Numbered from the stretch's first letter, positions 6,105 to 18,431 are shown. The stretch: DNA of 64,000 nt from an uncultured bacterium (GCA_964372875.1 CAYJTB010000002.1:21576-85575); one strand, 5' to 3'. The notes: generated by a model not told the origin, from the letters alone. A program made the numbers and translations.

Positions 6105-9100
6105 TTAAGCAGCGATGGCCATCTGTTTTGCGGCCTCGAAGACCTTCCAGATCGCTTCCACTAAGGCAAAAGCCGAGCTCTTTATTTTGAAACGGGATCC
6201 GTTGATCTCAAAGAGATCTTGTTTTTGTGAAAGGCTCAGAACATCTTGAGCAAGTTTGGTGGAAGCACCTGACATAATGACAAGATAAGCAGCGCGTTTA
6301 GCTTCTGGAATAGAATAGGTCACAGAACGCAGACTTTTTCCAAAGTCTTCGCCAAATTCAGCGATCTTATCAGACAGGTTTTCCGGAAGGCTCAAGACAA
6401 AATAACGTCCAAGAAACGTTTGAAATTTAACCTCACCTTCAGGAAAATATTGCTTGTGCGCTTCATGGGCTGCCTTCAAGACTTCCTTTCGTAAACCGAT
6501 CCAATCGGGCGCGTAAACAAGATTTGCCCGGCCATCGGGGACAAGCTTTGTAAGTTCATCCATTTGTTTTGTGAGTTCGTCCTGATCTTGCTGATTCTTC
6601 ACCGCCTCCGGGGTTACAAAAATACTCACTCTGGCTTTCTTATTTTCGACGAGGGGAACAATAAGGCCTCGAAGCTCTGAAGTGCTTGGAACATAATCTA
6701 AAGTCGCCACATGCACTCCGGGTTGATTCGCTCCTTTTGCCAACAATGTAAAAATGCGAGCGATTTCACTATTAAATTGAATACTCTCTGTTTCCGGTCT
6801 CTCACTTTGTTTGGAAAATTCAATTAAAGCTGGAAGAATTTCTTCATCGTCAGGACTAAAGACCCACCGCATTTGTTTGGCGATTTCCAAGATAGCCCGA
6901 ACGACCGTCTTTGGATCCATCTTAGGGTTAGAATAGGGACGATGTTTTACAGCCCTTTCCATCAAAGAGAGGGTGAGAACCTCAGTTTTGGGGGAAATTC
7001 TCATTTCCGAGCGGCCGGCTTCAGTGTCCGGCGGAGTCGGAGGCACTTGAGGAGGCTGGCGGAATAAATTCTCAAGGCTCGCCCGGTCCTGCTCTTTCAA
7101 AAGGTGAAGCGCAAAAATTCGCCCGGCAAGGGTTTCAATAAGTTCTTCCATGGCCGGCGTGAGCGGTTGCGATTTCACCCGAAACATCTTTATGTATTCA
7201 GAAGGAAGCGGAACATTATTCGCAATATCTGCAAAAGATTTGTTATCCGTTAATACAGCCACCGGGTTTTCCTTTTCATACTTACCTCCCTGAACATTTT
7301 GGAAGTAAAACTTTCGGGCGTCTTCAGGGGTGAGTTCACCTTTCAAACGGAGAAGCTTTTCAATGAGCTCAGTTCGTGGCTCAAGCGTCGTAAGAAAATC
7401 AATGAGATCTTTATAATTCCTGTCAAACCTTGCCAGCGGTTCGGTAAGACTCCAAACCTCGCTGCGCATTTCGGAGCGGTTCGGATTTTCGCCTTGACCG
7501 GGAAGGCCCTTCTCCAAAAGGTTGCGGATAAACAGAGCCGTGCTAAAAAGAAAATGTTTGGCTTCTTCATTAGGAACATCTTCCTTTTGGCTCGCTGTAT
7601 TTAAGGCGCTTGCGTAGCGCATGAGTTCGCTGCTAAAACGCGCAAGAACGCTTTGAGGATCTTTGTATTCCGGATTCGTTTCGGGATGAGTGAAGGAATA
7701 GGTTAGAGTCGATTCCCCCCCCGCCGTTTTTTCGGATTCGATCAAAGTGACTTCATTCTTATCGGGTTCAACCGTTAAATTCCAGTAAAACCCGTGCCCT
7801 TCTTCCAATTCCACGCTGTTGGACACCACGATTTTTCCGCCTTCCCCTTTATCAGACGGCAGTTGTTGCAATTGGATTTTATATTCAACGCCGTTCGCCG
7901 CCGTGAGTTGGGTTTCGTAAATATTTTTGGTATGAGTAGGCGCAATTAAAGGTATGCGCTCTGAGGTAGAAATGACTTTATGATAATAGGGAGAGGAAAT
8001 CAGTTGAGAGGGGATAGATTGGGCTTCGCCCTTAGAAGAATACAGGAGCGTCTCGGCGGGTTTTTCCGGGTTAGGTCCCAATACAAGGTAAAGCTCCGTT
8101 TCCAATTGAGTCTTGGCACCCTCGGGCACGGTGATCTCAACCTGCCCCTCTTCCGTGACCTTTTGAAGCGTCTCGACTAAATGTAAAATTCGGCCCACCA
8201 AGACATCGCCTTTTTCCGCTTTAAACAAAATGTCCTGAGGCCGAACCTCTTTTTCTGAAAAGGGCGACAGTTTGACTCGGTTGAGAAGCATTTTGACTTC
8301 ATAGCCAAAGCCGCTGGATTGTTCAGAAATGCTTTTGATTAACTCTTCACGATGGGCCAGCTCCCACAATTTGGAGAGGTATTGCTTTAATTCTTCATCA
8401 CTGGCCCGCGCCTCGGAACGGAAGTTGCGGGAGTCTGTGTGAGGATCATACATAGGTTCAAGGGCCCGACGGATGGGGTCAAAGACGAAAAAATGTTCCA
8501 GATGAAGACTGGGTTTATGGATCCCGGCATAGGCGTCCTTAACACGTGACGGTGAAAATACTATTTCCACGGCGCCAGCTATCGCGAGGATATTGCTGTA
8601 ATCTCCCGATCGAAACCAACGAATCAGCTCGTCTTTCGTGGGAGGAAATTCGAGCCTCCGATCTTCCAACGTCTTTTTCCATTCGTCAGGAAGATTTTCT
8701 TTCTTATACTGTGAAGCCATTTTTGAAAGAGTCTCCAAATCTCTTTCGTCAATCAGCCCATCCAAAACAGGATCGGCGATAAAACGTGGCGGTTTTCTCG
8801 GTTCGCGAATCTCGTAGAGCCTCCATTTCATACCGGTCGGTGAAAACTCGAGCACAAACCGCTTTAATTGTTCTTCCAGGCCCGCTTGATTTTCCGGAGA
8901 ATCTTCAGCCTGAAAAAGAAGATGATCGGGAGTCCACCGGTTTACCTTGTAGCCGCCGCCTCTAAAATATTCGGTTTCTGTTGCCTTGAGGTAGTCAAAC
9001 GCCGCCATTTTTTCTACGGGAAGCAGCTCCTTGATCCGATTTTGGAGGGCTTTAATAGCATCGCCGACGCTCATTCCTTTGCGCGCTTCGGGATCATCTG

Positions 9101-12100
9101 ATTCAAACAAGCCCGCGGGCGTAAGAAGCTTAGGAGTAGAATTCGCGACTTTGGCGGCGAAGTTGCCTTGGGGGTCAACTAATTTTTTCCTAAGAAGCGG
9201 TTGAGAAAAATCACCGGCATTCCTCAACCCTTCGATCGGGAGTTTGAGATCAAGATAGATGGGATAACGGGTCGAATCCACGATAAGAAACCGGTTCTGC
9301 CAGCCTAAGTTTGCGCGTTCTTTTAAGGAAACGATGCTGAAATTGTTAGAAATTGCCTGCTCCATGGTCGTTGTGGTGTGTCCGCCGATGGCGAAATCCA
9401 CTCCGTTTTTTTCTACATAATCAGCAATCGCACGTTCGGAGTAATCGCGGCTCCAAAGCGTTTCGAGAAGAGGGTTTGTTTGGCGCTGTTCTTTCTGCGA
9501 TCTTGGAATTCGCGTAAGGTCTCTTACTTCGGGCGTGAAGAAATTAATAACGTCTTTCAAGCTTTGAATGTTGTGAACGGCTCCCGCATGAGCTAACAGA
9601 ATTTTAGTCCGGTCATCTTCAGAATGAATTTTTAAAACAACGGGAGAGGCCTGTATGTAGTTCTTAAAACCTTCGAGGGCTTCTTCGGAAAATGGTTTTC
9701 CTTCCCCGAACACCTCTTTTTCAAAAAATGAATTTTGGGTTGTAAGACGCTTTTGTTGCCAGATAGCAAGCCCTCCCATTTCGTGAGGGAGATGAGCATA
9801 GTCATGATTGCCGGGAAGATAATGCACCTGAACAGGGAAACGGCGCTTCAACGCCAAAATTTGCAGCAAGGTTGTGAAGGAATCCGCATAAGCCTTGGGA
9901 TCTTCGAAGAGTTCGCTTCGATGAGTATGAATCGCATCGCCCGTAATCACAAGATGAGCGTTTTTATCTTTGCGGAGCGCCCGTTCGATATCGACTTCTT
10001 TTAAAATTGCCGCCAGATTTTCATAAGCGCCGTGAAGATCGCCGATCACAATCAGCCGGTCCGCGTTTTTAATTTCTACCAAAGCGCCCGGTTTTCCGTG
10101 ATCATCGAGCCACCGGACGCTGCGCTCCCGATTATTGATCTCTTCTCCCTGAGAGTGAAGCGGGTACGCATCAAGTGCCGTCACCGCCCGCGCGAAAAAT
10201 TTTTCCGCACCCTCTTTCATAAAGAATTCGTACATTTGTTCTTTATCCAAAACCGCGTCCTGCTTCGCTCGCACCTCGGCCCTCGCCCGCTCAGGCGAGG
10301 ACGGAGGAGTACCCGAATCCAACCGATTTGGGCGCACCTCGGCTCTTGCACCGGATTCTCTGAATTTTTCGGTTTCTAAAGTGAGGGATTGACCGTTCCC
10401 AGTTTGTGGATAATGACGGGCGGATTCAAGGACATTGATTTTCGAAGGACGGCTTACGATTCCGAAGTGCGTCTCGAGTTCTCCAAGGAGGCGGAAGATA
10501 ACTTCGTCTTCTTGAATGCTTGGGCTATAAGATCTCTGCTTCATGAAGTTCAGAGCTCGTTTGATCGTTCGAGTGTCGTAATTCTGAACGACGTATTGAA
10601 CGACCTCATTATCTTTACTGCGCACCTCGGCCCTCGCCCGCTCAGGCGAGGACGGAGGAGTACCCGAATCCAACCGATTCGGGTGCACCTCGGACCTTCG
10701 ACTCGGCTCCGTCCCGAGCGTAGTCGAGGGGCTCAGGTCAAAAACACTCGGCCCTGAGCGAAGCCCTTCGGACTGAGTCGAACGGGCCTCGGAGCGGGAT
10801 TGTAAGCTGGCGGGAATGGGATCGAGATCCGTTTGCTTAAGTTCTTGAATTTCTAAAGATTCATGATTCGGTGTAATTTCTCGCTCCCAAAGGATCAGAA
10901 CGCCCGGGGCTTTTAATCTTTCCCAAATCATTCTCGCTCTTTCCTTGATGGTCTCCGAAGTCCAGTGTTCTCCCATCCAGGTGTTTCTCCAAAAGAAGAT
11001 ATGAGAAGGCGCAATAAATTCTGGATGAGCGGGAAGATCAAACAGATTTCCGTAAATTCCTTTGAATTCAACATCGATTCGGGAACGGTCCGTTTTGGGT
11101 AATTCAAGAAGCCGGTCTTTGATTACTTGTTCAAGCTCCAGAAGCGCTTCTACACTTTGGTTTACCACCTGTAAAACGAGATGGATTTTTTGTCCCTTGC
11201 CTTTTAGGGTTTTTAGTTCAGCGATCACCGTTTCGACGGTCTCCATCAATTCATCCCCTTGCTTACCCGGTCCCAACGTCGTCACGACCATCCCACGCGT
11301 ACCCGCTTCCACTAAAGAATGAACGGCCGAACGCAAAGCTCTTTGCTCGTTCTCTTCTAGAGGAAAATTCGAATCCGAGATGGCTTGTCCTTGATCCAAT
11401 CCTGTTTGAACCAAACGACGAATCTCTTGTTCGTCTAAGTCGGTGTAAGGCAGGAAAAAATCTACGATTTTACCCGGCTTCCATAATTCAGGCCGGAAAG
11501 TCCCGCGCCGCATTTCCAATTGCTGCGCCACAATTTTTTCCAAACGTTCTCTTTTCGTGTCACTCCGCACCTCGGCCCTCGCCCGCTCAGGCGAGGACGG
11601 AGGAGTACCCGAATCCAACCGATTCGGGTGCACCTCGGACCTTCGACGCGGCTCCGTCCCGAGCGTAGTCGAGGGGCTCAGGTCAAAAACACTCGGCCCT
11701 AAGCGAAGCCCTTTGGGCTGAGTCGAACGGGCCTCGGAGCGGGGGGCCGTTATTTTATCTTTAATAATATTATGGTTGACTTTTAATAAATCATTTGTTA
11801 CCCTTTCCCCGTTCTGAAATGCTAAGGTATGATGAAAGGAGAACAAGCCTGAGGTGAAAATATTCTGGACTCCAAAACGGTTGGAGGCGATGTCAAAAAC
11901 TTCTTTAACGCTGTTCCAGGCATTTTTGGTGGCAGCAGTAGTTGGTGGCGTGTTAGGCAAAATTCCGAATGCCTGGCTCAAGTTGTTTTTTCTGTCGGCG
12001 ACGTTTAGCTTTTTGGTATTAGGAATTATAGTGGCCGATTGGCCTTTAATGAAAAAAGAGGAGGCCTGAAATGTTTGCTCTGATCTTTGCTTTGGTTCTG

Positions 12101-15100
12101 ATATTTGTAATTGCTGCTTGGATTGGAATCGAGCAGTACCGCCTGAAACACCGGCGTCATTAATCGTTTCCGCATTTCGCATCTCGGCCCTCGCCCGCTC
12201 AGGCGAGGACGGAGGAGTACCCGAATCCAACCGATTCGGGCGCACCTCGGAACGGGGGCCTTGGTTATCTTCAAACCCGCCGGCGATCTTCAAATCCTGA
12301 AGGCGATCATCAAGCCGCTCCACGGCGTAGTCAAGCCCCTGGAGAAGGTGGGCTTCCTTTTCCGGATCATTTTGCATGGAATTTTTTAAATCGGCGATCA
12401 GGGATTTGGCTTCACCGGCTTCACGGAAAATGGTTTCGACAATCTCCGGACTCACTCTCTGACCCGTATTATTGTGATGCTTCAACGCCTCCATCAGATT
12501 TCCGCGCAGCTTAATCAAGCTTTGATCCAGCAAACGGCGCAATTCCTCAGGCGTCTCGCCTCCTCCCTCAAGGGGCTCCGGAGTCGGTTGCGCCCGCACC
12601 TCAGCGCGGGGCAGCGCTAGAAACGTAGTTTTATTTAAATCAAATTTTTCTTGACTATAAAATATATCCTTGTTAAACTCTCCTTTAATGAAAGATCGAA
12701 CACGACGGCTTGAGTCTGGTAAAATGCTACTGGACGTCTCAAAGTATTTCTCGACAGTTACGGGCATCGGAAGCCTGGCGGGCGGTTCCGTGAATTGGCG
12801 GTTAGCCGCTGTAGGTCTATTCATGGCGTTCGTATCTTGGTTTGTCGGATTTGTGACAATTCCTAAAGATGAGGAAACCAAATGACTAATTTTGAAATCA
12901 CGGCCATTGGCATCGGGATATTCGCCCTGGCGGTGGGCCTGACGGTCTACCTCACCGAGCGCTGGGACTCGATGCGCCATAACTCCCGTAAGCCCAAACA
13001 CGCCTAATTTAACATCCCCGCTGTTTTTCTCACTCCGCACCTCGGCTCTCGCCCGCTCAGGCGAGGACGGAGGAGTCTCCGGCCGGTCAGCCGGAGGCAC
13101 CTCGGCTCTCGAGTCGGCGCGGGTGCGTTCCTGCCAACTCAAAATGATTTTTTGGATTTCTGGATGAAGTCGAAACGCCGCTGATCGAAACATTTCGAGC
13201 GGAGGCGCCTCCGACAATTGTAATTTTGAGTCGATTCCCTCTTTCCCCTGAGACTCTATCGATCTTTGGAACTCCGATAAAAAATAAAATGCGTAAATCC
13301 GCTGAGTAAGATTGTCTAACCCCGAGGCCCAGGCCCGAAAGTTGCCAAGGCCGAGCTGTATTTCCTTTTCAAGAATCCGGATAGGATCGCCCTGCGCCTT
13401 TAAAATTTCCTCATACCTTCCTTCGAACAATGCCCTTAGGCCCTGTGCGTCGCGCCCTTTCGCGGCACGTAAACTCGATTGAAAACGCTTGGGAAGAAAC
13501 AATCCTTTTTCCTTCCCCCACTTGATGGCTTCTTCCTGTCGCGATGTTTCATAAAATTCATTTGCCATAAGGATGGCAACAAAGCGTAGAATTTGTTCGT
13601 CATATTTTGATAAGAACCGGTTTACCGAGTCCCGGGGCCAAAAAGGTTGCGGGTTTCCCTCAAAAAGGGAAGCGGCCTCATTTCGGATGATGGGAATTCC
13701 TTCCTTCAATAGTTCCTTGTGTTCCGGATCACTCCACTTGAAAGCGGCACCCCCCCAAGCTTCACGGATGATGTCGGAGGCAAAGCCTAGAAAAAAATAA
13801 TCCAGAGAATCAAGATTTTGAATGGCATTCCATCTCCAATAAAGATGCGCATCATTGATGCGTATCGTCATGGTTCCTGATGGGTCATCTTTTTTCTTTG
13901 CGTAAATCATTCCTTGTCTTGCCAGTTCAGCAGGCAGCGGCTCCGCTTTCTTGACCGCTTCCTTATAGTTCTTGAGAACCTCGGGATGCGGGTATCCTTG
14001 TTCAATCAACCAATCAATCGTTGCCGAAATGGCTTGTTTGATACTTTCCAGATTGGGATCAACTTTGAAACGCAATTGTTTTGGCAATTTTGCCGGTGTG
14101 CTTTGGGTGGATGAAATACCTTTGAGGTCTCCGACGATTTTTACAATTTTTTCGAGTTGATCATTCGTCAGTCCTAGAATTCCCTTTTGATTTTTTATTT
14201 TTTCTTCAAGGATTCGCCGCAGCTCCTGCACGGTCAATGTTTCACTTCTGTAAAGAAGCCTCAAGCGATCTTCGTTTAAACGGTCATGAAATTTTTGTGG
14301 AATACCGCTCTTGGCTTTGATGTTATCCCTCAGCATCTCGAGCTTCCTTTTTTCGTCCGTTCCGTGAGAATCTGCCCGCATCTCGGCCCTCGCCCGCTCA
14401 GGCGAGGGCGGAGGAGTACCCGAATCCAACCGATTCGGGTGCACCTCGGACCTTCGACTCGGCTCCGTCCCGAGCGTAGTCGAGGGGCTCAGGTCAAAAA
14501 CACTCGGCCCTGAGCGAAGCCCTTCGGACTGAGTCGAACGGGCCTCGGAGCGTGAAGTTTGATTTTTATTATAATATTTATTGATATAAAATGAAACTCC
14601 TGCTAGACTCCCCAGCGCATAAGGAGCTCTATTCATGAAAGAAATCTTTTCACCCGATCGGCGGGAAGTTGCAGCACGAACGTTATTCGATACCTGGAAG
14701 CTATCCGTCCCCGCCGCTGTAGCAGGAGGGTTCTTCCTCCAATTCAATATTTTTGTTAAAATCGCATTTGTGGTAGGGCTTTTAGCCGGATTTGCCTTGG
14801 CATTTTTTATGTTCCCTCCGGAATCAAGGGGAAAAGGAGGTTGAGATGTTAGTTGCTGTGAGTATTTTATTGGTGTTGGTTCCCGCCGTCCTTCTTGCAG
14901 GAATGTATTTAGAACAGTACCTGAGGAAGCGTCGTCACCTACATTAGAAAGGAGCGGCTGAGATGGACGTTGCTTTGATTTCGATATTTGGGATCCTTGT
15001 AGTGATAGGGACGTGGTTTGGGATTGAGAAGTACCAGGAACGCCGGAAGAGACACCTTCATTAAACCTTCCGGTATTCTTCTCACTCCGCGCCTCGGAGC

Positions 15101-18100
15101 GGTTGGCACCTCGTGCTAGTTGGTCGGCTTTTTGAATTTTCTTTTTCAAGAGATTAAGGTTAGGAATCGCCTTTTCACTCGCGATCTTGTCTAAAGTTTC
15201 AAGAGCAAGTTTAGAAAAGCCATCTTCGGCAAGTTTTTCAAATGCGTCTTGACTTTGTGCCTGTTCTATTAAACCCTTCTTAAATTGTTCAACGATGTAA
15301 ATTGAAAAATCTTCAACCCCTTTTCTACGAAAGTTCGGAATCAACAAAGATTTCTTCGTCTCATCAAGAACGAAAAAATTGGAACTCCATTTCCTAATAA
15401 ATCGGATATGTGACGAATTGATAAATCTTCCGGTTTGTGGGTCTTTTCGGAAAAGATCTATCAAATATTCTTTCAATTTTGCGCCATTCTTCTCTTCTAT
15501 TATCGCCTCAAACAAAGCGTGATTTTTCCCAGCATCCTTCTCCGGATCCCCTAAATAACTAGCATCTTCAAACTCTTTTTGTAACGATGGAAAAATTTTC
15601 TTGAGCAGTAGCAGCTCTTCCTCAAACCTCTTCTTCAATCCTTTGGATTGGATAATGGGCAATGGAAGCTTCCGAAATGCTTCTATTTTTTCATCCCCCA
15701 TGCCGTAGGGATTTATATCTATCGAATTCCGAATAGCGTGAAGAGCCTGAACATTTTCGGGAATATCTAAATTCAATTTCTGAATCGCTTCCACAAAAGC
15801 AACGTCTTTAGTTCTTTCGCTCGCCCGCACCTCGGCCCTCGCCCGCTCAGGCGAGGACGGAGGAGTACCCGAATCCAACCGATTCGGGTGCACCTCGGAC
15901 CCTCGACGATCAGAAGTTAGAAGTCGGGAGTCAGATATCAGATTTGCCTCCGAGCGGGAAAACACTATTTCCTTATTCGTCAAAAATATATTGACTTTTA
16001 AGGAATATGGATATACACTCATTGCCGCAAAAGGAGAGTAAGTTTTGTTTACACCGCTTCGAAGATTTGAATATGGTAGGATGCTGTTGGCATTGATCCC
16101 CGTGCTTGTGGGCTCGGCAGTGGTAAGCCGTGTGTTTACAGAAGCACCGCCGTTCTTTAGAATAGGGGTGGTATTGCTGATATTAGTCATAAGCGTGCTT
16201 GGCTTTATTATTTTACCCGCATCAATGGAAACTAAAGAAGGGAGGCGTTGAAATGATAGATACCGCGACGGCAGCTCTTCTGGGTGTTTTTTTAATGTTG
16301 ATTGTGATGATGTCTTGGTTTGGGATCGAGAAATATCTGGAGCGGCGGAAGAAGACTCATTGATAACACCCGGCAGCTCAAAATCAGCGAGAATTTCTTT
16401 TTGAGTCGTCGGAGCGGAGCGGGCGTCTAGGACAGGCGTCTCAACCGTGATGGTTCCAAACGGGATCACGATCGGCGCGCCGTAGATATTACGAAGTGGT
16501 TTGTTTTCCACATTGTCCCACACGATAGCTTTCTCGCCCGTGCGGCTTAAAATAAGAACAAATCTTCGGTCAGAGGCGTAACTACTTTGATTGATAGCAC
16601 GAATAATTCGTGACGCCGCCATCCTCTCATCTTTTGCTGTCTCAATAATTGCCTGAAGAACACTTTTAATTTCTTGAATAATGATTTTGGGCCGGACGTT
16701 TTGATCACGCGTTGTCATCCGCATCCGGATGGCATTGGAGATTTCTTTGATCGCAGGCTCGAGGTAGTTTACATCAAACGAGGTTTTCTTTTCGCCGAGA
16801 AGAGACGAGATGTAATCTTGAGACGAAGTTTTTTCTGTGATGCGCGGAGAGAGGATCGTGTAAGAAATTCCTTTTTTTCGGAAGGCGCGCGAGAGTCCGT
16901 CGGCGTGGAAACCGCCGGTGATGAGGACGGTGACGCCGTTCTCCCTCATCTTGCTCTTCTCCTCCCGAGGGGGAGAAGAGACAGTTGAGGGGGGATTTAA
17001 TATTTTTTCCACCATCACATCTTCACGTTTTTTGGCAAGTTGGTAGAAACGCATTGCCTGTTGGTAAAGATATTCAATCGCCCGGATGTTCGCAGGAATG
17101 ATTTGAGACGGACCCAAGTTTGTTTTGTCATGAAGAGATTGCATATCAATAAGGTAACGGACAAGCGGGCGGTCGATCGTTTCAGCTTGCTGGATTTTGA
17201 CGTAATCTTTGGGCGTAAGTTCCAAGTCAAAGAGCCGCTCGAAAAGTCCGCCGCGCTGGGCAAGCCCGACCAGTTTTAATTCTTCCGGTTGGGCAGCAAC
17301 GGCTTGGATTAGATTTTGAAAGAGCCGCTCGATTTCACCAAAAAGCCGTTCCGCATCGAGTTCGCTTTGTAAAACAGCCGCCTCCAAATAATGTGTGAAG
17401 TAGGGATAGTGATCAAAAGAAAATCCCTTATCGACTGTGGAGACTACAAGGTATTCCGCCAAATAACGCGGCAGATCATTTTTATTAAAACCAGGATCGT
17501 AGACCATTCCCGTTTGGTAAGGGGAGAACGAGAGGTTTTCAAAGGCGTGGACAAGAACGGGATGAACCCCGATTTCTTTTAAGTCAGCGATTAATTTTTG
17601 ACGGTCCGTTTGAATTCGTTCAGGATCAAGGCCCGACTCCGCCTCCTGAAGCCTCAAGAGCCTGATCATCTGCGGCCAGTCTTTTTGGCTCTCAAAGTTT
17701 CTAAGATCCACGCCCAGAATTTGTTTGGTTCTTCGCTCGAGTTCAAAGGCATAAGAGAGAAGTTCCATCTGGCCGGCCTCAAAAGATTCATTCGTTCGGA
17801 GCAGTGTTCTCGTATGAGGCGTTAGCAGATGAGTTCCAAGCCGGTCGAGTTCGCCGTCCAGTCCTTTGGTGAAAGTATTCGTTTCATTTTGCCGGCTCAT
17901 TACAATTTGAAAACTCTCTAGGTTATCCCGGTAAAGATCAGGATCTTCAATTCCGTAGGCGGGGATTTTTTCCTGTGATTCAATGAGGAAAAGTTCCGCT
18001 CCCGTCAGTTCGCCCTTTTCAACAAGCTTTTGGGCAACCTCCACGTTCAACTGGTTTTGATCAAAAAATTTGAAGTAGTCGGGGTTGAGTTTTTCGCCGG

Positions 18101-18431
18101 CGCCTTCAATGAATAAAGCGCGAACGCCGTATTTCTCGTCCAGAAATTTTAGAAGGGCAAAAATCTTTTTCTGTGTCTCGGCGTGTGCGTGAACCGATTG
18201 GATATGAATGAGAGGAATATTTTCTGTTTTTGTGTCGGGAAGAAATGCTTCTTTAATCGAAGCAAGCTCCTGGGGAATTCCGAGGGGCATCAAAGACAAG
18301 GGAAGATTTTCTATGCCGCCTTCGGCCTTCGCGGGTGGAACGAGGATGGACGATGCAATGACACACATCGCGACCAAGAGAGATATAAACTTTTTATAAG
18401 TCTTCATTAATGTCATAAATCTAATTTTCAA
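6105..18431 (-). CDS. Giant secreted modular protein (4108 aa). It has a signal peptide, a Tiki/ChaN/TraB-like N-terminal domain, several unknown modules and a calcineurin-like metallophosphatase module. REP-encoded linkers and low-complexity linkers separate the modules.
   Basis: This is a single stop-free frame of 12,327 nt and the only minus-strand gene in the window. The N-terminus KFISLLVAMCVIASSILVPPAKA is a signal peptide. IHIQSVHAHAE...ALFIEGA...VLITGGFHADG (about 16850-18250) resembles the Tiki/ChaN fold. LIVIGDLHG...VITGDAIH...LPGNHDY...GGHTTT (about 9350-10130) are metallophosphoesterase motifs. The start could be TTG 18431, ATG 18416 or ATG 18407. Confidence 0.75.
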   Translation of the reverse strand: MKIRFMTLMKTYKKFISLLVAMCVIASSILVPPAKAEGGIENLPLSLMPLGIPQELASIKEAFLPDTKTENIPLIHIQSVHAHAETQKKIFALLKFLDEKYGVRALFIEGAGEKLNPDYFKFFDQNQLNVEVAQKLVEKGELTGAELFLIESQEKIPAYGIEDPDLYRDNLESFQIVMSRQNETNTFTKGLDGELDRLGTHLLTPHTRTLLRTNESFEAGQMELLSYAFELERRTKQILGVDLRNFESQKDWPQMIRLLRLQEAESGLDPERIQTDRQKLIADLKEIGVHPVLVHAFENLSFSPYQTGMVYDPGFNKNDLPRYLAEYLVVSTVDKGFSFDHYPYFTHYLEAAVLQSELDAERLFGEIERLFQNLIQAVAAQPEELKLVGLAQRGGLFERLFDLELTPKDYVKIQQAETIDRPLVRYLIDMQSLHDKTNLGPSQIIPANIRAIEYLYQQAMRFYQLAKKREDVMVEKILNPPSTVSSPPREEKSKMRENGVTVLITGGFHADGLSRAFRKKGISYTILSPRITEKTSSQDYISSLLGEKKTSFDVNYLEPAIKEISNAIRMRMTTRDQNVRPKIIIQEIKSVLQAIIETAKDERMAASRIIRAINQSSYASDRRFVLILSRTGEKAIVWDNVENKPLRNIYGAPIVIPFGTITVETPVLDARSAPTTQKEILADFELPGVINESSSAAPDISRSQTKTSSQSTLKKHPEELPSRYLSFQRLPSLVSIDAGKIIKPSTLMTNISNTTPILKNGGASVNTRLTTAEPTSTGINANSILPYSNLRSGVNKTYSPFAAMSVYPYSLKVNIFLTNKEIVFSRSEANLISDSRLLTSDRRGSEVHPNRLDSGTPPSSPERARAEVRASERTKDVAFVEAIQKLNLDIPENVQALHAIRNSIDINPYGMGDEKIEAFRKLPLPIIQSKGLKKRFEEELLLLKKIFPSLQKEFEDASYLGDPEKDAGKNHALFEAIIEEKNGAKLKEYLIDLFRKDPQTGRFINSSHIRFIRKWSSNFFVLDETKKSLLIPNFRRKGVEDFSIYIVEQFKKGLIEQAQSQDAFEKLAEDGFSKLALETLDKIASEKAIPNLNLLKKKIQKADQLARGANRSEARSEKNTGRFNEGVSSGVPGTSQSQTTSLSLQGSQISKSKQRPSQPLLSNVGDDASSGTVLNTFLQEGRREPTPIKYSQQLTSQPPFPLDSGGNIKNAKANPAKSPTTNAILTKILNWRKNPPATAAGTDSFQVSNNVRAATSRRSGEKISFMNRAPYALGSLAGVSFYINKYYNKNQTSRSEARSTQSEGLRSGPSVFDLSPSTTLGTEPSRRSEVHPNRLDSGTPPPSPERARAEMRADSHGTDEKRKLEMLRDNIKAKSGIPQKFHDRLNEDRLRLLYRSETLTVQELRRILEEKIKNQKGILGLTNDQLEKIVKIVGDLKGISSTQSTPAKLPKQLRFKVDPNLESIKQAISATIDWLIEQGYPHPEVLKNYKEAVKKAEPLPAELARQGMIYAKKKDDPSGTMTIRINDAHLYWRWNAIQNLDSLDYFFLGFASDIIREAWGGAAFKWSDPEHKELLKEGIPIIRNEAASLFEGNPQPFWPRDSVNRFLSKYDEQILRFVAILMANEFYETSRQEEAIKWGKEKGLFLPKRFQSSLRAAKGRDAQGLRALFEGRYEEILKAQGDPIRILEKEIQLGLGNFRAWASGLDNLTQRIYAFYFLSEFQRSIESQGKEGIDSKLQLSEAPPLEMFRSAAFRLHPEIQKIILSWQERTRADSRAEVPPADRPETPPSSPERARAEVRSEKNSGDVKLGVFGLTGVMAHRVPALGEVDRQAHRQGEYPDANGRDFKISHLVSSSLGIVTNPTNQDTNAMNRPTAANRQFTEPPARLPMPVTVEKYFETSSSILPDSSRRVRSFIKGEFNKDIFYSQEKFDLNKTTFLALPRAEVRAQPTPEPLEGGGETPEELRRLLDQSLIKLRGNLMEALKHHNNTGQRVSPEIVETIFREAGEAKSLIADLKNSMQNDPEKEAHLLQGLDYAVERLDDRLQDLKIAGGFEDNQGPRSEVRPNRLDSGTPPSSPERARAEMRNAETINDAGVSGGTARFQSKQQLQISEPKQRSEQTFQASSFFIKGQSATIIPNTKKLNVADRKNNLSQAFGILPNTPPTTAATKNAWNSVKEVFDIASNRFGVQNIFTSGLFSFHHTLAFQNGERVTNDLLKVNHNIIKDKITAPRSEARSTQPKGLRLGPSVFDLSPSTTLGTEPRRRSEVHPNRLDSGTPPSSPERARAEVRSDTKRERLEKIVAQQLEMRRGTFRPELWKPGKIVDFFLPYTDLDEQEIRRLVQTGLDQGQAISDSNFPLEENEQRALRSAVHSLVEAGTRGMVVTTLGPGKQGDELMETVETVIAELKTLKGKGQKIHLVLQVVNQSVEALLELEQVIKDRLLELPKTDRSRIDVEFKGIYGNLFDLPAHPEFIAPSHIFFWRNTWMGEHWTSETIKERARMIWERLKAPGVLILWEREITPNHESLEIQELKQTDLDPIPASLQSRSEARSTQSEGLRSGPSVFDLSPSTTLGTEPSRRSEVHPNRLDSGTPPSSPERARAEVRSKDNEVVQYVVQNYDTRTIKRALNFMKQRSYSPSIQEDEVIFRLLGELETHFGIVSRPSKINVLESARHYPQTGNGQSLTLETEKFRESGARAEVRPNRLDSGTPPSSPERARAEVRAKQDAVLDKEQMYEFFMKEGAEKFFARAVTALDAYPLHSQGEEINNRERSVRWLDDHGKPGALVEIKNADRLIVIGDLHGAYENLAAILKEVDIERALRKDKNAHLVITGDAIHTHRSELFEDPKAYADSFTTLLQILALKRRFPVQVHYLPGNHDYAHLPHEMGGLAIWQQKRLTTQNSFFEKEVFGEGKPFSEEALEGFKNYIQASPVVLKIHSEDDRTKILLAHAGAVHNIQSLKDVINFFTPEVRDLTRIPRSQKEQRQTNPLLETLWSRDYSERAIADYVEKNGVDFAIGGHTTTTMEQAISNNFSIVSLKERANLGWQNRFLIVDSTRYPIYLDLKLPIEGLRNAGDFSQPLLRKKLVDPQGNFAAKVANSTPKLLTPAGLFESDDPEARKGMSVGDAIKALQNRIKELLPVEKMAAFDYLKATETEYFRGGGYKVNRWTPDHLLFQAEDSPENQAGLEEQLKRFVLEFSPTGMKWRLYEIREPRKPPRFIADPVLDGLIDERDLETLSKMASQYKKENLPDEWKKTLEDRRLEFPPTKDELIRWFRSGDYSNILAIAGAVEIVFSPSRVKDAYAGIHKPSLHLEHFFVFDPIRRALEPMYDPHTDSRNFRSEARASDEELKQYLSKLWELAHREELIKSISEQSSGFGYEVKMLLNRVKLSPFSEKEVRPQDILFKAEKGDVLVGRILHLVETLQKVTEEGQVEITVPEGAKTQLETELYLVLGPNPEKPAETLLYSSKGEAQSIPSQLISSPYYHKVISTSERIPLIAPTHTKNIYETQLTAANGVEYKIQLQQLPSDKGEGGKIVVSNSVELEEGHGFYWNLTVEPDKNEVTLIESEKTAGGESTLTYSFTHPETNPEYKDPQSVLARFSSELMRYASALNTASQKEDVPNEEAKHFLFSTALFIRNLLEKGLPGQGENPNRSEMRSEVWSLTEPLARFDRNYKDLIDFLTTLEPRTELIEKLLRLKGELTPEDARKFYFQNVQGGKYEKENPVAVLTDNKSFADIANNVPLPSEYIKMFRVKSQPLTPAMEELIETLAGRIFALHLLKEQDRASLENLFRQPPQVPPTPPDTEAGRSEMRISPKTEVLTLSLMERAVKHRPYSNPKMDPKTVVRAILEIAKQMRWVFSPDDEEILPALIEFSKQSERPETESIQFNSEIARIFTLLAKGANQPGVHVATLDYVPSTSELRGLIVPLVENKKARVSIFVTPEAVKNQQDQDELTKQMDELTKLVPDGRANLVYAPDWIGLRKEVLKAAHEAHKQYFPEGEVKFQTFLGRYFVLSLPENLSDKIAEFGEDFGKSLRSVTYSIPEAKRAAYLVIMSGASTKLAQDVLSLSQKQDLFEINGSRFKIKSSAFALVEAIWKVFEAAKQMAIAA
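10270..10342. repeat. REP/MITE-like element, short form (two hairpins), in frame in the giant ORF
   Basis: CGCACCTCGG CCCTCGCCCGCTCAGGCGAGG ACGGAGGAGT ACCCGAATCCAACCGATTTGGG CGCACCTCGG. The element is bounded by a 10-nt direct repeat. On the minus strand it reads RAEVRPNRLDSGTPPSSPERARAEVR. Confidence 0.9.
10622..10797. repeat. REP/MITE-like element, long form (short form plus a second hairpin-rich sub-element), in frame in the giant ORF
   Basis: Nearly identical to 11566-11741 and 14377-14552. On the minus strand it reads RSEARSTQSEGLRSGPSVFDLSPSTTLGTEPSRRSEVHPNRLDSGTPPSSPERARAEVR. CCTCGG-containing 10-mers occur at both ends and at the junction of the sub-elements. Confidence 0.9.
11566..11741. 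repeat. REP/MITE-like element, long form
   Basis: Same sequence as 10622-10797 apart from a handful of substitutions. It lies immediately upstream (+ sense) of nested cassette A. Confidence 0.9.
11776..11804 (+). promoter_or_regulatory. Sigma70-like promoter of nested cassette A
   Basis: TTGACT (11776-11781), a 17-nt spacer, then TACCCT (11799-11804), with AT-rich sequence upstream. Confidence 0.5.
11854..12069 (+). CDS. Nested small two-TM membrane protein A1 (71 aa), antisense to the giant ORF
   Basis: GTG 11854 (or ATG 11890). There is a basic N-terminus, two hydrophobic helices (LTLFQAFLVAAVVGGVLG / LKLFFLSATFSFLVLGIIVA) and an acidic tail KKEEA. It is a paralog of B1, C1 and D1. Confidence 0.6.
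   Translation: MKIFWTPKRLEAMSKTSLTLFQAFLVAAVVGGVLGKIPNAWLKLFFLSATFSFLVLGIIVADWPLMKKEEA
12071..12163 (+). CDS. Nested single-TM peptide A2 (30 aa)
   Basis: The SD GAGGAGG lies 6 nt upstream of the ATG. Peptide: MFALIFALVLIFVIAAWIGIEQYRLKHRRH. Confidence 0.6.
   Translation: MFALIFALVLIFVIAAWIGIEQYRLKHRRH
12178..12250. repeat. REP/MITE-like element, short form
   Basis: CGCATCTCGG...GGGCGCACCTCGG. It lies 15 nt downstream of the stop of nested ORF A2. Confidence 0.9.
12651..12679 (+). promoter_or_regulatory. Sigma70-like promoter of nested cassette B
   Basis: TTGACT (12651-12656), a 17-nt spacer, then TAAACT (12674-12679), with AT-rich sequence upstream. ATG 12688 lies only about 9 nt downstream, so the leader may be very short. 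Confidence 0.5.
12670..12885 (+). CDS. Nested small two-TM membrane protein B1 (71 aa from TTG 12670; more likely 65 aa from ATG 12688)
   Basis: MKDRTRRLESGKMLLDVSKYFSTVTGIGSLAGG...LAAVGLFMAFVSWFVGFVTIPKDEETK, with the same architecture as A1, C1 and D1. Confidence 0.55.
   Translation: MLNSPLMKDRTRRLESGKMLLDVSKYFSTVTGIGSLAGGSVNWRLAAVGLFMAFVSWFVGFVTIPKDEETK
12882..13007 (+). CDS. Nested single-TM peptide B2 (41 aa)
   Basis: The ATG overlaps the B1 stop (ATGA), with the SD GAGGAA 5 nt upstream. Peptide: MTNFEITAIGIGIFALAVGLTVYLTERWDSMRHNSRKPKHA. Confidence 0.55.
   Translation: MTNFEITAIGIGIFALAVGLTVYLTERWDSMRHNSRKPKHA
13036..13105. repeat. REP/MITE-like element, variant short form
   Basis: It has the same ends (CGCACCTCGG / GGCACCTCGG) and the same first hairpin (CTCGCCCGCTCAGGCGAG). 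The second hairpin is replaced by a different self-complementary sequence (CTCCGGC CGGTCA GCCGGAG instead of ACCCGAATC CAACC GATTCGGGT). Confidence 0.85.
14377..14552. repeat. REP/MITE-like element, long form
   Basis: Near-identical to 10622-10797. It lies immediately upstream (+ sense) of nested cassette C. Confidence 0.9.
14581..14609 (+). promoter_or_regulatory. Sigma70-like promoter of nested cassette C
   Basis: TTGATA (14581-14586), a 17-nt spacer, then TAGACT (14604-14609), with AT-rich sequence upstream. Confidence 0.5.
14635..14844 (+). CDS. Nested small two-TM membrane protein C1 (69 aa)
   Basis: The SD AAGGAG lies 8 nt upstream of the ATG. Sequence: MKEIFSPDRREVAARTLFDTWKLSVPAAVAGGFFLQFNIFVKIAFVVGLLAGFALAFFMFPPESRGKGG. 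Confidence 0.65.
   Translation: MKEIFSPDRREVAARTLFDTWKLSVPAAVAGGFFLQFNIFVKIAFVVGLLAGFALAFFMFPPESRGKGG
14846..14947 (+). CDS. Nested single-TM peptide C2 (33 aa)
   Basis: The SD AAGGAGG lies 5 nt upstream. Peptide: MLVAVSILLVLVPAVLLAGMYLEQYLRKRRHLH. Confidence 0.6.
   Translation: MLVAVSILLVLVPAVLLAGMYLEQYLRKRRHLH
14963..15064 (+). CDS. Nested single-TM peptide C3 (33 aa)
   Basis: The SD AAAGGAG lies 8 nt upstream. Peptide: MDVALISIFGILVVIGTWFGIEKYQERRKRHLH. Confidence 0.6.
   Translation: MDVALISIFGILVVIGTWFGIEKYQERRKRHLH
15826..15898. repeat. REP/MITE-like element, short form
   Basis: CGCACCTCGGCCCTCGCCCGCTCAGGCGAGGACGGAGGAGTACCCGAATCCAACCGATTCGGGTGCACCTCGG. It lies upstream (+ sense) of nested cassette D. 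Confidence 0.9.
15991..16019 (+). promoter_or_regulatory. Sigma70-like promoter of nested cassette D
   Basis: TTGACT (15991-15996), a 17-nt spacer, then TACACT (16014-16019), with AT-rich sequence upstream. Confidence 0.5.
16045..16251 (+). CDS. Nested small two-TM membrane protein D1 (68 aa)
   Basis: TTG start with the SD AAAGGAGAG upstream. FTPLRRFEYGRMLLALIPVLVGSAVV...RIGVVLLILVISVLGFIILPASMETKEGRR. Confidence 0.6.
   Translation: MFTPLRRFEYGRMLLALIPVLVGSAVVSRVFTEAPPFFRIGVVLLILVISVLGFIILPASMETKEGRR
16253..16363 (+). CDS. Nested single-TM peptide D2 (36 aa)
   Basis: The SD GGGAGG lies 7 nt upstream. Peptide: MIDTATAALLGVFLMLIVMMSWFGIEKYLERRKKTH. Confidence 0.6.
   Translation: MIDTATAALLGVFLMLIVMMSWFGIEKYLERRKKTH

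Follow-up and report, generated by a model that had tools for sequence, protein, structure and literature searches.

Giant proteins of the Omnitrophota have been described as 'multi-enzyme metabolic clusters', transmembrane-anchored proteins of thousands of residues that carry many unrelated domains (bioRxiv 10.64898/2026.06.07.730766; 10.1101/2023.11.21.568195). Neither preprint mentions 'antisense', 'linker' or 'polyprotein' in term searches; 'cleavage' is absent from the 2026 preprint, and the 2023 one states that cleavage points are unknown. Rickettsia palindromic elements (RPEs) are selfish palindromic DNA inserted in frame in protein-coding genes (reviewed in PMC10969869); they are scattered over unrelated genes and carry no genes themselves. 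Antiparallel overlapping genes such as ano and laoB of E. coli O157:H7 (PMC5960689, PMC5810103) are small genes embedded antisense within a longer annotated gene, and are young, lineage-restricted and arose de novo by overprinting inside an older gene. Integron gene-cassette arrays are exchangeable units separated by short, structured, repeated boundary sequences, with content that varies between relatives, whereas viral-type polyproteins carry unrelated functional units in one long ORF, separated by a short repeated cleavage motif and accompanied by a cis-encoded protease.

Here we examined a stretch of 64,000 nucleotides from an uncultured bacterium (GCA_964372875.1 CAYJTB010000002.1:21576-85575; hereafter the window), in which a − strand ORF of 4,108 codons encodes an Omnitrophota modular giant protein. 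A first-pass annotation had proposed that four antisense cassettes (A–D) in this ORF are each bracketed by REP elements or their 10-mer end motifs, as composite REP–promoter–genes–REP units in module slots of the ORF. It had offered three explanations, namely that the boundaries are recombination sites that shuffle modules, that the unit is a composite mobile element built to be translatable on its antisense strand so that insertion does not kill the host gene, or that the REP hairpins act as terminators or stabilisers of the + strand transcripts.

Results

Organization of the giant gene

The layout was confirmed, with all the annotated REPs and motifs found where they had been placed. The features are as follows.

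6105-18431 (−): giant ORF of 4,108 aa, with a signal/anchor helix, a conserved N-terminal domain, then variable modules separated by R[SA]E[VAM]R delimiters
16364-18431 (−): conserved N-terminal domain (aa 1-689), shared by 58 homologues, with an EreA/ChaN/TraB-like core
15899-16363 (+): cassette D; TTGACT 15991-15996 and TACACT 16014-16019; D1 16045-16251 (DUF6722-like, 68 aa); D2 16253-16363 (36 aa)
15826-15898 (no strand assigned): short REP, an in-frame mini-module RSEVH-PNRLDSGTPPSSPERA-RAEVR with two hairpins
15116-15825 (−): ordinary sense module (236 aa), with a positive codon-usage score in the − strand frame and no paralogue among the other modules
15087-15115 (−): delimiter RSEAR plus a degenerate second copy (ARGAN), read on the − strand
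14553-15086 (+): cassette C; TTGATA 14581-14586 and TAGACT 14604-14609; C1 14635-14844 (69 aa); C2 14846-14947 (33 aa); C3 14963-15064 (33 aa)
14377-14552 (no strand assigned): long REP, an in-frame double mini-module bounded by three delimiters (RSEAR ... RSEVH ... RAEMR)
13106-14376 (−): sense module (423 aa), homologous to aa 4049-4381 of the protein P0002 and to the protein P0007
13036-13105 (no strand assigned): variant REP, with the first hairpin conserved and the second replaced by a different palindrome
12605-13035 (+): cassette B; TTGACT 12651-12656 and TAAACT 12674-12679; B1 12688-12885 (DUF6722; longest ORF begins at 12670); B2 12882-13007 (41 aa)
12594-12608 (−): solo delimiter RAEVR, containing the annotated 10-mer CGCACCTCAG
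12251-12594 (−): sense module (114 aa)
12178-12250 (no strand assigned): short REP
11742-12177 (+): cassette A; TTGACT 11766-11771 and TACCCT 11789-11794; A1 11854-12069 (71 aa); A2 12071-12163 (30 aa)
11566-11741 (no strand assigned): long REP
10270-10798 (no strand assigned): short REP (10270-10342), a 92-aa sense module and a long REP (10621-10798), outside the annotated units

Some details of the annotation required correction. B1 most likely starts at ATG 12688 rather than 12670, the second solo motif downstream of cassette C (GGCACCTCGTG) is a degenerate copy, and unit D has no delimiter on its downstream side but abuts the conserved N-terminal domain directly. In addition, the two REPs at 10270-10342 and 10621-10798 flank an ordinary sense module, therefore REPs are not specific to cassettes.

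The giant gene lies in a syntenic position (ROK-TatC-GATase1_like, giant gene, APS kinase-PHP-PAPS reductase) shared with L001 and L002, two loci that carry orthologous giant genes. Homologues carry PGI, PTS EI, NUDIX, kinase and other domains. The N-terminal domain shares the α/β core fold of the EreA/ChaN/TraB/Tiki superfamily, although the fold match is moderate. In 12 sequences H76, H81, E109, R469 and H509 are invariant, a result obtained without superposition on the catalytic residues of the family.

The boundary motif and the REPs

The 10-mer CGCACCTCGG is coding sequence and encodes the pentapeptide R[SA]E[VAM]R. With at most one mismatch it occurs 20 times in the window against 3.6 expected; 17 of these are + strand copies between 10270 and 15898, and one more + strand copy (8407) and one − strand match (10462) also lie inside the giant ORF. 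As a peptide delimiter, R[SA]ExR separates modules in about 35 of 59 homologous giant proteins, with 5-23 copies each against 0.1 expected, and the window protein has 17 copies. The motif is conserved across proteins that are about 25% identical. In L021, a locus with an embedded D-type cassette that shares the delimiter feature, the RSELR copies, including the two that flank the cassette, differ at many synonymous sites, so the conserved object is the peptide and not a DNA site. However, delimiter codons are almost uniform in the window, L001 and L002, far more so within a genome than the peptide requires, which also fits a DNA-level process.

The REPs are in-frame mini-modules of roughly 73-176 nt between two or three such delimiters. 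Alignment placed long REPs at 11562-11743 and 14373-14554, 96-97% identical to a third copy at 10617-10798, and short REPs at 12177-12260 and 15825-15908; overall the copies are 96-99% identical. All seven lie inside the giant ORF, in frame and in one orientation, and the full REP cores occur nowhere else in the 64 kb. The REP sequence is also absent from L001, L002 and all other loci, and from the metagenome collection; the REPs are specific to this lineage. The short REP folds into two strong hairpins (−36 kcal/mol on the + strand; z −3.7 on both strands), and of the long REPs the copy at 11566-11741 was folded. The REPs resemble classical REP/BIME elements as imperfect palindromes forming stable hairpins, but not in having an extragenic location. 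Classical elements have an associated RAYT (Y1 transposase) in the genome; none of the ten genes flanking the giant ORF is a transposase. Like RPEs, they are hairpin-forming, repeated and in frame within a protein-coding gene, and the cassettes likewise persist inside an ORF without breaking it. Unlike RPEs, they are confined to one gene within the 64 kb examined, are bounded by the host's own peptide delimiter and have direct-repeat ends, and the nested cassettes carry a promoter-like pair and two or three genes on the opposite strand.

The + strand operons

Each cassette has a −35/−10-like pair of the TTGAC-N17 type, GGAGG-type ribosome-binding sites, a DUF6722 two-helix protein gene and one or two ORFs for 30-41 aa peptides. 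B1 matches DUF6722 (Pfam PF20482) with 29.0 bits against a cutoff of 27 (E 1.3e-6). A1, C1 and D1 fall below Pfam detection; they match a profile built from family members at E 3e-21 to 5e-20, but were themselves among the 33 sequences used to build it, and independent support comes from the DUF6722-annotated proteins they retrieve. Each of A1-D1 has its own closer relatives in a library of 1.8 billion proteins. No function is known for DUF6722, and only a sub-threshold TsaT hit was found (E 0.0085, 16.5 bits against a cutoff of 80); the resemblance to the small hydrophobic toxins of type I toxin-antitoxin systems is in composition only.

The same layout, a promoter, a ribosome-binding site, a roughly 65-70 aa two-helix gene and an adjacent or overlapping roughly 30-40 aa single-helix gene with a basic tail, is shared by the free-standing loci L004-L008, L010, L018 and L019 and by all embedded copies. 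In the free-standing locus L020 the automated search did not recover the peptide ORF, although the peptide profile matches at 10210-10329. Relatives of cassette A comprise the embedded orthologues L009 and L011-L014 and the free-standing L010 and L018; L017 is an embedded orthologue of cassette B; and cassette D has L021 as an embedded relative and L019 and L020 as free-standing ones. The free-standing homologues include members of other phyla. In contrast to overprinted genes, the embedded unit is therefore neither younger than nor restricted to its host gene, but is an old, widespread operon across which the host frame has been kept open, with four copies in this one gene.

The host frame and recurrence of the nesting

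The − strand frame of the giant ORF has 0 stops in every cassette, while the other two − strand frames have 7-14, and nucleotide shuffles give P of about 1e-4 per cassette. When the + strand proteins were held fixed, with synonymous codons resampled and non-coding sequence shuffled, P(0 stops) was 0.0008, 0.007, 0.0013 and 0.0053, about 4e-11 jointly. Codon-usage scoring, on the other hand, does not separate the strands inside the cassettes, as all frames score near 0.

Seven further cassettes, in L009, L011, L012, L013 and L014 (A-type), L017 (B-type) and L021 (D-type), lie antisense inside open frames. The frame of L017 spans its whole 571-bp contig, and the others run from over 1,141 aa to over 6,730 aa. 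All 11 embedded cassettes, or 12 counting the partial L003 locus, share one codon phase, and the seven also have 0 stops, whereas free-standing A- and D-type relatives and outgroups have 3-9 stops in that phase. Cassettes sit between host-type delimiters in the window, L009, L011 and L021, where L011 has an unrelated delimiter ([AG]ARLA[GD]), and L009, L012-L014 and L021 have embedded cassettes without REPs.

Discussion

Our data confirm the observation made in the first-pass annotation, while its interpretation is only partly supported. The cassettes do sit in module slots bounded by the sequence that bounds the protein modules, and the core of its second explanation, a unit that stays readable on its antisense strand so that the host gene survives, is strongly supported by the stop-codon statistics and by the recurrence of the arrangement in at least seven other giant genes. 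A REP-bounded mobile unit and a DNA recombination site are poorly supported.

We favour, with moderate confidence, selected nesting of one gene inside another over chance. In this view the giant gene encodes a membrane-anchored, polyprotein-like protein with interchangeable modules, the REPs are lineage-specific spacer modules whose near-identity points to recent copying or gene conversion, and four module slots are occupied, in reverse orientation, by a two-gene operon for a DUF6722 protein and a single-helix peptide with a His/Arg/Lys tail. The analysis itself establishes the anatomy, the stop-free bias, the recurrence and the homology of the + strand genes. We infer from sequence alone that both strands are expressed, that the delimiters are processing or flexible-linker sites, perhaps cut by the N-terminal hydrolase-like domain, and that head-on transcription from the cassettes influences expression of the giant gene; any function of the operon is likewise a matter of inference. 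On present evidence the + strand genes could be silent, or the giant ORF untranslated beyond some point. In the shared-wobble phase the two protein sequences largely determine each other, therefore selection on the filler peptide cannot be separated from selection on the DUF6722 protein, and this view does not explain how a cassette that normally carries 3-9 antisense stops first entered an essential reading frame. The resemblance to viral-type polyproteins lies in the single long ORF, the short conserved motif and the hydrolase-like fold of the N-terminal domain. Tiki/TraB relatives include proteases, but cleavage remains hypothetical here and no bacterial precedent of this form is known to us.

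Of the alternatives, the possibility that delimiters and REPs are homologous or site-specific recombination sites, with the cassettes simply modules moved in this way, survives best but remains unlikely. Module turnover at delimiters is real between orthologues: the window, L001 and L002 share the N-terminal domain but almost no modules, shared modules are colinear, and whole-module insertions or deletions fall exactly at a delimiter (P0002 RAEVR 4377). The uniform delimiter codons and the near-identity of the REPs would also fit. However, the synonymous variation in L021, the conservation of the motif as a peptide and the presence of cassettes in hosts with other delimiters argue against this, no recombinase lies nearby, and a 10-15 nt identity is short for RecA-type recombination. 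As in integron arrays, exchangeable units are separated by short, structured, repeated boundary sequences, with content that varies between relatives. The comparison is limited, as there is no integrase in the flanks, the boundaries are codons of a peptide and do not appear to be attC sites, the units lie in one continuous frame, and the nested operons carry their own promoters, unlike the promoterless cassettes of integrons.

A role of the REP hairpins as terminators or 3′-end stabilisers of the + strand operons, which would not exclude the nesting, is doubtful. REPs begin 14-28 nt after the stops of A2 and B2, the variant REP keeps a second hairpin with a different sequence, and L009 and L017 have a small hairpin after the downstream delimiter. 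On the other hand, no T-run follows the REP hairpins, cassettes C and D and the L021 cassette lack a downstream hairpin, hairpins are absent next to several embedded cassettes and equally strong on the − strand, and long REPs lie upstream of cassettes A and C, where a terminator for that operon makes no sense.

Transposition of REP–promoter–genes–REP as a unit, as a MITE or composite transposon would, is less likely still. Five of the seven REP copies adjoin a cassette, the L011 cassette is also bracketed by two copies of a local 54-nt repeat, and A-type cassettes occur in unrelated giant ORFs. However, the near-identical REPs flank cassettes that share only 13-29% (DUF6722 genes) and 21-40% (peptides) protein identity, and were therefore not copied together with them. 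REPs are also absent from other embedded loci and flank a sense module, their ends are direct 10-mers with no inverted pair bracketing a cassette, there are no target-site duplications, and no transposase lies within 6 kb. Finally, that the + strand ORFs are decaying relics or chance ORFs is very unlikely despite their near-zero codon-usage scores and lack of known function, because all 11 fully sampled embedded cassettes keep both genes intact with start codons and ribosome-binding sites, nearly all keep a −35/−10 pair, the A-type proteins are 49-69% identical to free-standing homologues, and HMM E-values are 1e-16 to 1e-26.

In summary, we propose that the operon is presumably transcribed and translated from the + strand, while host translation on the − strand would run through it and yield a filler module of roughly 150 aa. 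This would be possible because the DUF6722 gene always sits in the phase where third codon positions of both strands coincide, and because codon choice and the non-coding promoter and leader have, in this view, been purged of TTA, CTA and TCA in that phase. The flanking delimiters would then keep the filler separate from the functional modules of the giant protein.

Layout of the giant ORF and its nested cassettes

To verify the layout described in the first-pass annotation, we first searched the window for long open reading frames, repeats and copies of the boundary motif. The − strand ORF at 6105-18431, which encodes 4,108 aa, is the only very long ORF in the window. A repeat search recovered every REP that the annotation had listed, together with two more that flank an ordinary module:

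10269: short REP, newly found
10617: long REP, newly found
11562-11743: long REP
12177-12260: short REP
13036-13105: variant REP
14373-14554: long REP
15825-15908: short REP

The 10-mer CGCACCTCGG, with one mismatch allowed, occurs 20 times against 3.6 expected, and 17 of these are + strand copies between 10270 and 15898. The REP cores occur nowhere else in the 64 kb. Each of the four AT-rich stretches carries a TTGAC(T/A)-N17-TAnnCT pair, with the predicted −10 boxes ending at 11794, 12679, 14609 and 16019, and GGAGG-type ribosome-binding sites in front of an ORF of roughly 70 aa with two helices and of one or two ORFs of 30-41 aa with one helix. The observed layout is therefore correct. Exact-sequence look-ups of the giant protein, of B1 (the first gene of cassette B) and of the protein P0001 returned no record.

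The host frame is free of stops across the cassettes

Within the four cassettes the host frame has 0 stops, whereas the two other antisense frames have 7-14, and nucleotide shuffles give P(0) of about 0-5e-4 per cassette. We also used a stricter null, in which the + strand proteins were held fixed, synonymous codons were resampled from the window's own usage, and only the non-coding parts were shuffled. This gives P(0) of 0.0008, 0.007, 0.0013 and 0.0053, about 4e-11 jointly, with both the coding and the non-coding parts contributing. In contrast, six-frame codon-usage log-odds separate the sense modules clearly but are uninformative inside the cassettes. We considered whether an alternative genetic code or an assembly artefact could cause the open frame and rejected both, as the other frames and the flanking genes have normal stops and the pattern recurs in independent assemblies. 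A local blastp of the antisense 'filler' peptides (for example ...NAWNSVKEVFDIASNR...) against 59 homologues of the giant protein found no relatives.

The boundary motif is a peptide delimiter

Read on the − strand, the 10-mer is the codon string of the pentapeptide R[SA]E[VAM]R, which occurs 17 times in the protein. A database search shows that the protein belongs to a family of Omnitrophota giant proteins of 2,400-7,100 aa, which share only the first 560-690 residues and then carry widely different Pfam content. In about 35 of the 59 homologues the same motif (R[SA]E[VAMLI]R across the window protein, P0002-P0050 and the metagenomic locus L021) occurs 5-23 times against about 0.1 expected, beginning just after the N-terminal domain; it is therefore a family-wide module delimiter. 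Each genome favours its own variant (RAEVR, RSEAR, RSELR and others), and these delimiters are candidate processing sites. Term searches of two preprints on Omnitrophota giant proteins found no mention of them.

The short REP is a mini-module between two delimiters (RSEVH-PNRLDSGTPPSSPERA-RAEVR), while the long REP has three delimiters. Another family member, P0014, has analogous double-delimiter mini-modules of different sequence in aa 994-4510, namely RSELR-PEINISGT...-RSELR three times and RSEVR-...SDPQSLNPIGS-RAEIR three times. The REPs form two strong hairpins on either strand (z about −3.7). The variant REP at 13036-13105 keeps two hairpins, but its second stem-loop has an unrelated sequence (CTCCGGCCGGTCAGCCGGAG in place of CCCGAATCCAACCGATTCGGG), suggesting selection on the structure. 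Nucleic-acid structure is therefore also conserved, as in the in-frame palindromic elements of Rickettsia (PMC10969869). In addition, a conserved 16-mer, TCACTCCGC(A/G)CCTCGG, at 15070-15097, 13018-13045 and 11548-11575, reads RAEVR/RSEAR-SE(K/D) on the − strand; it lies immediately downstream of cassettes B and C and at the module-REP junction upstream of cassette A. L021 has RSELRSAKN at the equivalent place.

We next asked whether the delimiter is a DNA site or a peptide. In the window and in L001 and L002, the syntenic orthologous loci, the delimiter codons are far more uniform than the peptide requires. In L021, however, the RSELR copies differ freely at synonymous positions, including the two that flank its cassette, and the motif is conserved as a peptide among proteins only about 25% identical. 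The conserved object is therefore the peptide, and the local codon uniformity and 96-99% REP identity point to recent copying or gene conversion on top of that.

The + strand genes are real and old and have free-standing relatives

B1 passes the Pfam DUF6722 threshold. A profile of A1-D1, the first genes of the four cassettes, finds about 30 small proteins in a library of 1.8 billion proteins, in which each of the four window proteins has its own closer relative. A wider search finds 65 proteins, mostly annotated as DUF6722, from Thermodesulfovibrionales, Desantisbacteria and others. On their contigs these genes stand free, with the same layout of promoter, roughly 65 aa gene and roughly 35 aa gene, and every antisense frame there has 4-9 stops at a similar GC content. 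NCBIfam and PHROGs scans gave no meaningful hit for the small proteins, which belong to a family without a known function. The small peptide partners (12071-12163, 14846-15064 and 16253-16363 in the window, and those of L009-L021) end in His/Arg/Lys-rich tails (KHRRH, RKRRHLH, HHHHSH, KHRHSH), and cassette C carries two such peptide genes in tandem.

Recurrence of the nesting in other giant genes

To determine whether the nesting is particular to this gene, we scanned other genomes with an alignment of A-type operons. Five more operons (L009, L011-L014) lie antisense inside open frames running from over 1,141 aa to over 6,730 aa, and one copy (L010) is free-standing, as is L018, another A-type copy. 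L017 is a B-type orthologue whose antisense frame is open over the whole contig, with RAEVR right after the peptide gene. For the D-type, a metagenome scan found one embedded copy (L021, in an ORF of more than 6,028 aa with RSELR on both sides) and two free-standing copies. In all 11 embedded cassettes, or 12 counting the partial locus L003, the host frame is the one whose third codon positions coincide with those of the DUF6722 gene, and it has 0 stops, whereas free-standing relatives have 3-9 stops in that same phase. All embedded copies keep both genes and ribosome-binding sites, and nearly all keep a −35/−10 pair. Embedded and free A-type proteins are about equally distant from one another (49-69% identity), so embedding is either old or repeated.

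The hosts differ in their delimiters. The giant ORFs of L011 (3460-20181, −) and L012 (1-14934, −) use another repeated delimiter, [AG]ARLA[GD], with 19 and 9-10 copies, respectively, and L012 has the same N-terminal domain. L011 also carries GC-rich repeats inside the ORF, including a 92-nt pair that is 100% identical and 10.7 kb apart. In L013 (1-20190, −) and L014 (1-19269, −) no enriched delimiter motif was found, and transmembrane helices lie on either side of the cassette. These two giant ORFs are rich in transmembrane helices followed by basic tails, for example ILTIGILIFFGFIVGMMVYRWRRDRPRSS, which occurs twice; the helices seem to separate modules, and they resemble the small peptides of the cassettes but lie in sense orientation. 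In the window, L009, L011 and L021 the cassette sits between the host's own delimiters, and in L011 it is bracketed by that host's own 54-nt repeat. The REP core is absent from the other loci retrieved, and a REP 29-mer is absent from the metagenome contigs searched. The cassette is therefore the travelling or persisting entity, and the REPs are local. Several loci with the A-type cassette (L012, L013 and L010) come from MAGs labelled Planctomycetia or Planctomycetales and not Omnitrophota, although L012 has the N-terminal domain of the Omnitrophota proteins; either the family spans PVC phyla or the bins are mislabelled.

Module turnover at delimiters

The syntenic orthologues L001 and L002 have the same flanks, but lack cassettes and REPs and share few modules with the window; tblastn of the small proteins against both found nothing. 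The shared modules are colinear, as shown by comparison of window 7475-14376 with aa 4049-4777 of the orthologous protein P0002. In P0002 the relatives of window modules 13106-14376, the second half of 7475-8406, and 6108-7009 are contiguous, and the window carries about 1,570 extra residues exactly at the P0002 delimiter RAEVR 4377. The extra material is the variant REP, cassette B, a module, a REP, cassette A, more REPs and further modules. Whole-module insertions or deletions at delimiters are thus real, although by a mechanism that these data do not identify, and no recombinase lies nearby. We also considered that the region might be a tandem duplication of units composed of a cassette and a sense module. 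This was rejected, as the sense modules next to the cassettes are unrelated to one another and the cassettes are deeply diverged.

The N-terminal domain

An AlphaFold model of the N-terminal domain, built from 12 sequences, has a pLDDT of 79. Foldseek against the PDB was not significant, and Pfam and NCBIfam scans gave no meaningful hit for the domain. Taken with the delimiters, this predicted hydrolase-like domain makes a self-processing polyprotein a reasonable, though hypothetical, idea. Neither of the two preprints on Omnitrophota giant proteins yielded a hit for antisense, linker or polyprotein, and one of them states that cleavage points are unknown.

Interpretation and implications

Our data best fit nested antisense operons in module slots of a polyprotein-like giant gene, maintained by selection on both strands. 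The layout, the stop-free host frame, its recurrence and the homology of the + strand genes are read directly from the sequences, while expression of both strands and processing at the delimiters are inferred. The interpretation offered by the first-pass annotation is thus partly supported. Its suggestion of a unit translatable on its antisense strand is right. Its reading of the boundary sequences as DNA recombination sites is not supported as stated, and its proposal that the REP hairpins terminate or stabilise the + strand transcripts stands only as a hypothesis. The REP-bounded composite unit is likewise not supported as stated.

Antisense overlapping genes in bacteria are rare and disputed. 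Here an independently recognisable, widely conserved operon lies inside another gene, with a quantitative signature of selection on the opposite frame, free-standing relatives that act as natural controls, and at least 11 replicates in different hosts, which makes it an unusually clean case. The data also show that a non-coding promoter and leader can stay free of stops in one antisense frame. The family-wide delimiter (R[SA]ExR, or ARLAG in other hosts) and the predicted hydrolase-like N-terminal domain together make it directly testable whether, and where, these giant proteins are processed.

A further, still tentative, possibility is that giant modular genes of Omnitrophota and related bacteria host a class of 'frame-transparent' nested operons. 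These would be old, self-promoted gene pairs recoded so that the host ribosome reads straight through their antisense strand, and the resulting filler would be flanked by the same peptide delimiters that separate, and perhaps allow cleavage of, the functional modules of the host. If both strands are expressed, this would be long-term, selected, bidirectional coding of roughly 450-bp stretches that include a promoter, and it would also give the first candidate cleavage points for these giant proteins. More generally, the data suggest that giant modular genes can tolerate, or recruit, foreign material between delimiters.
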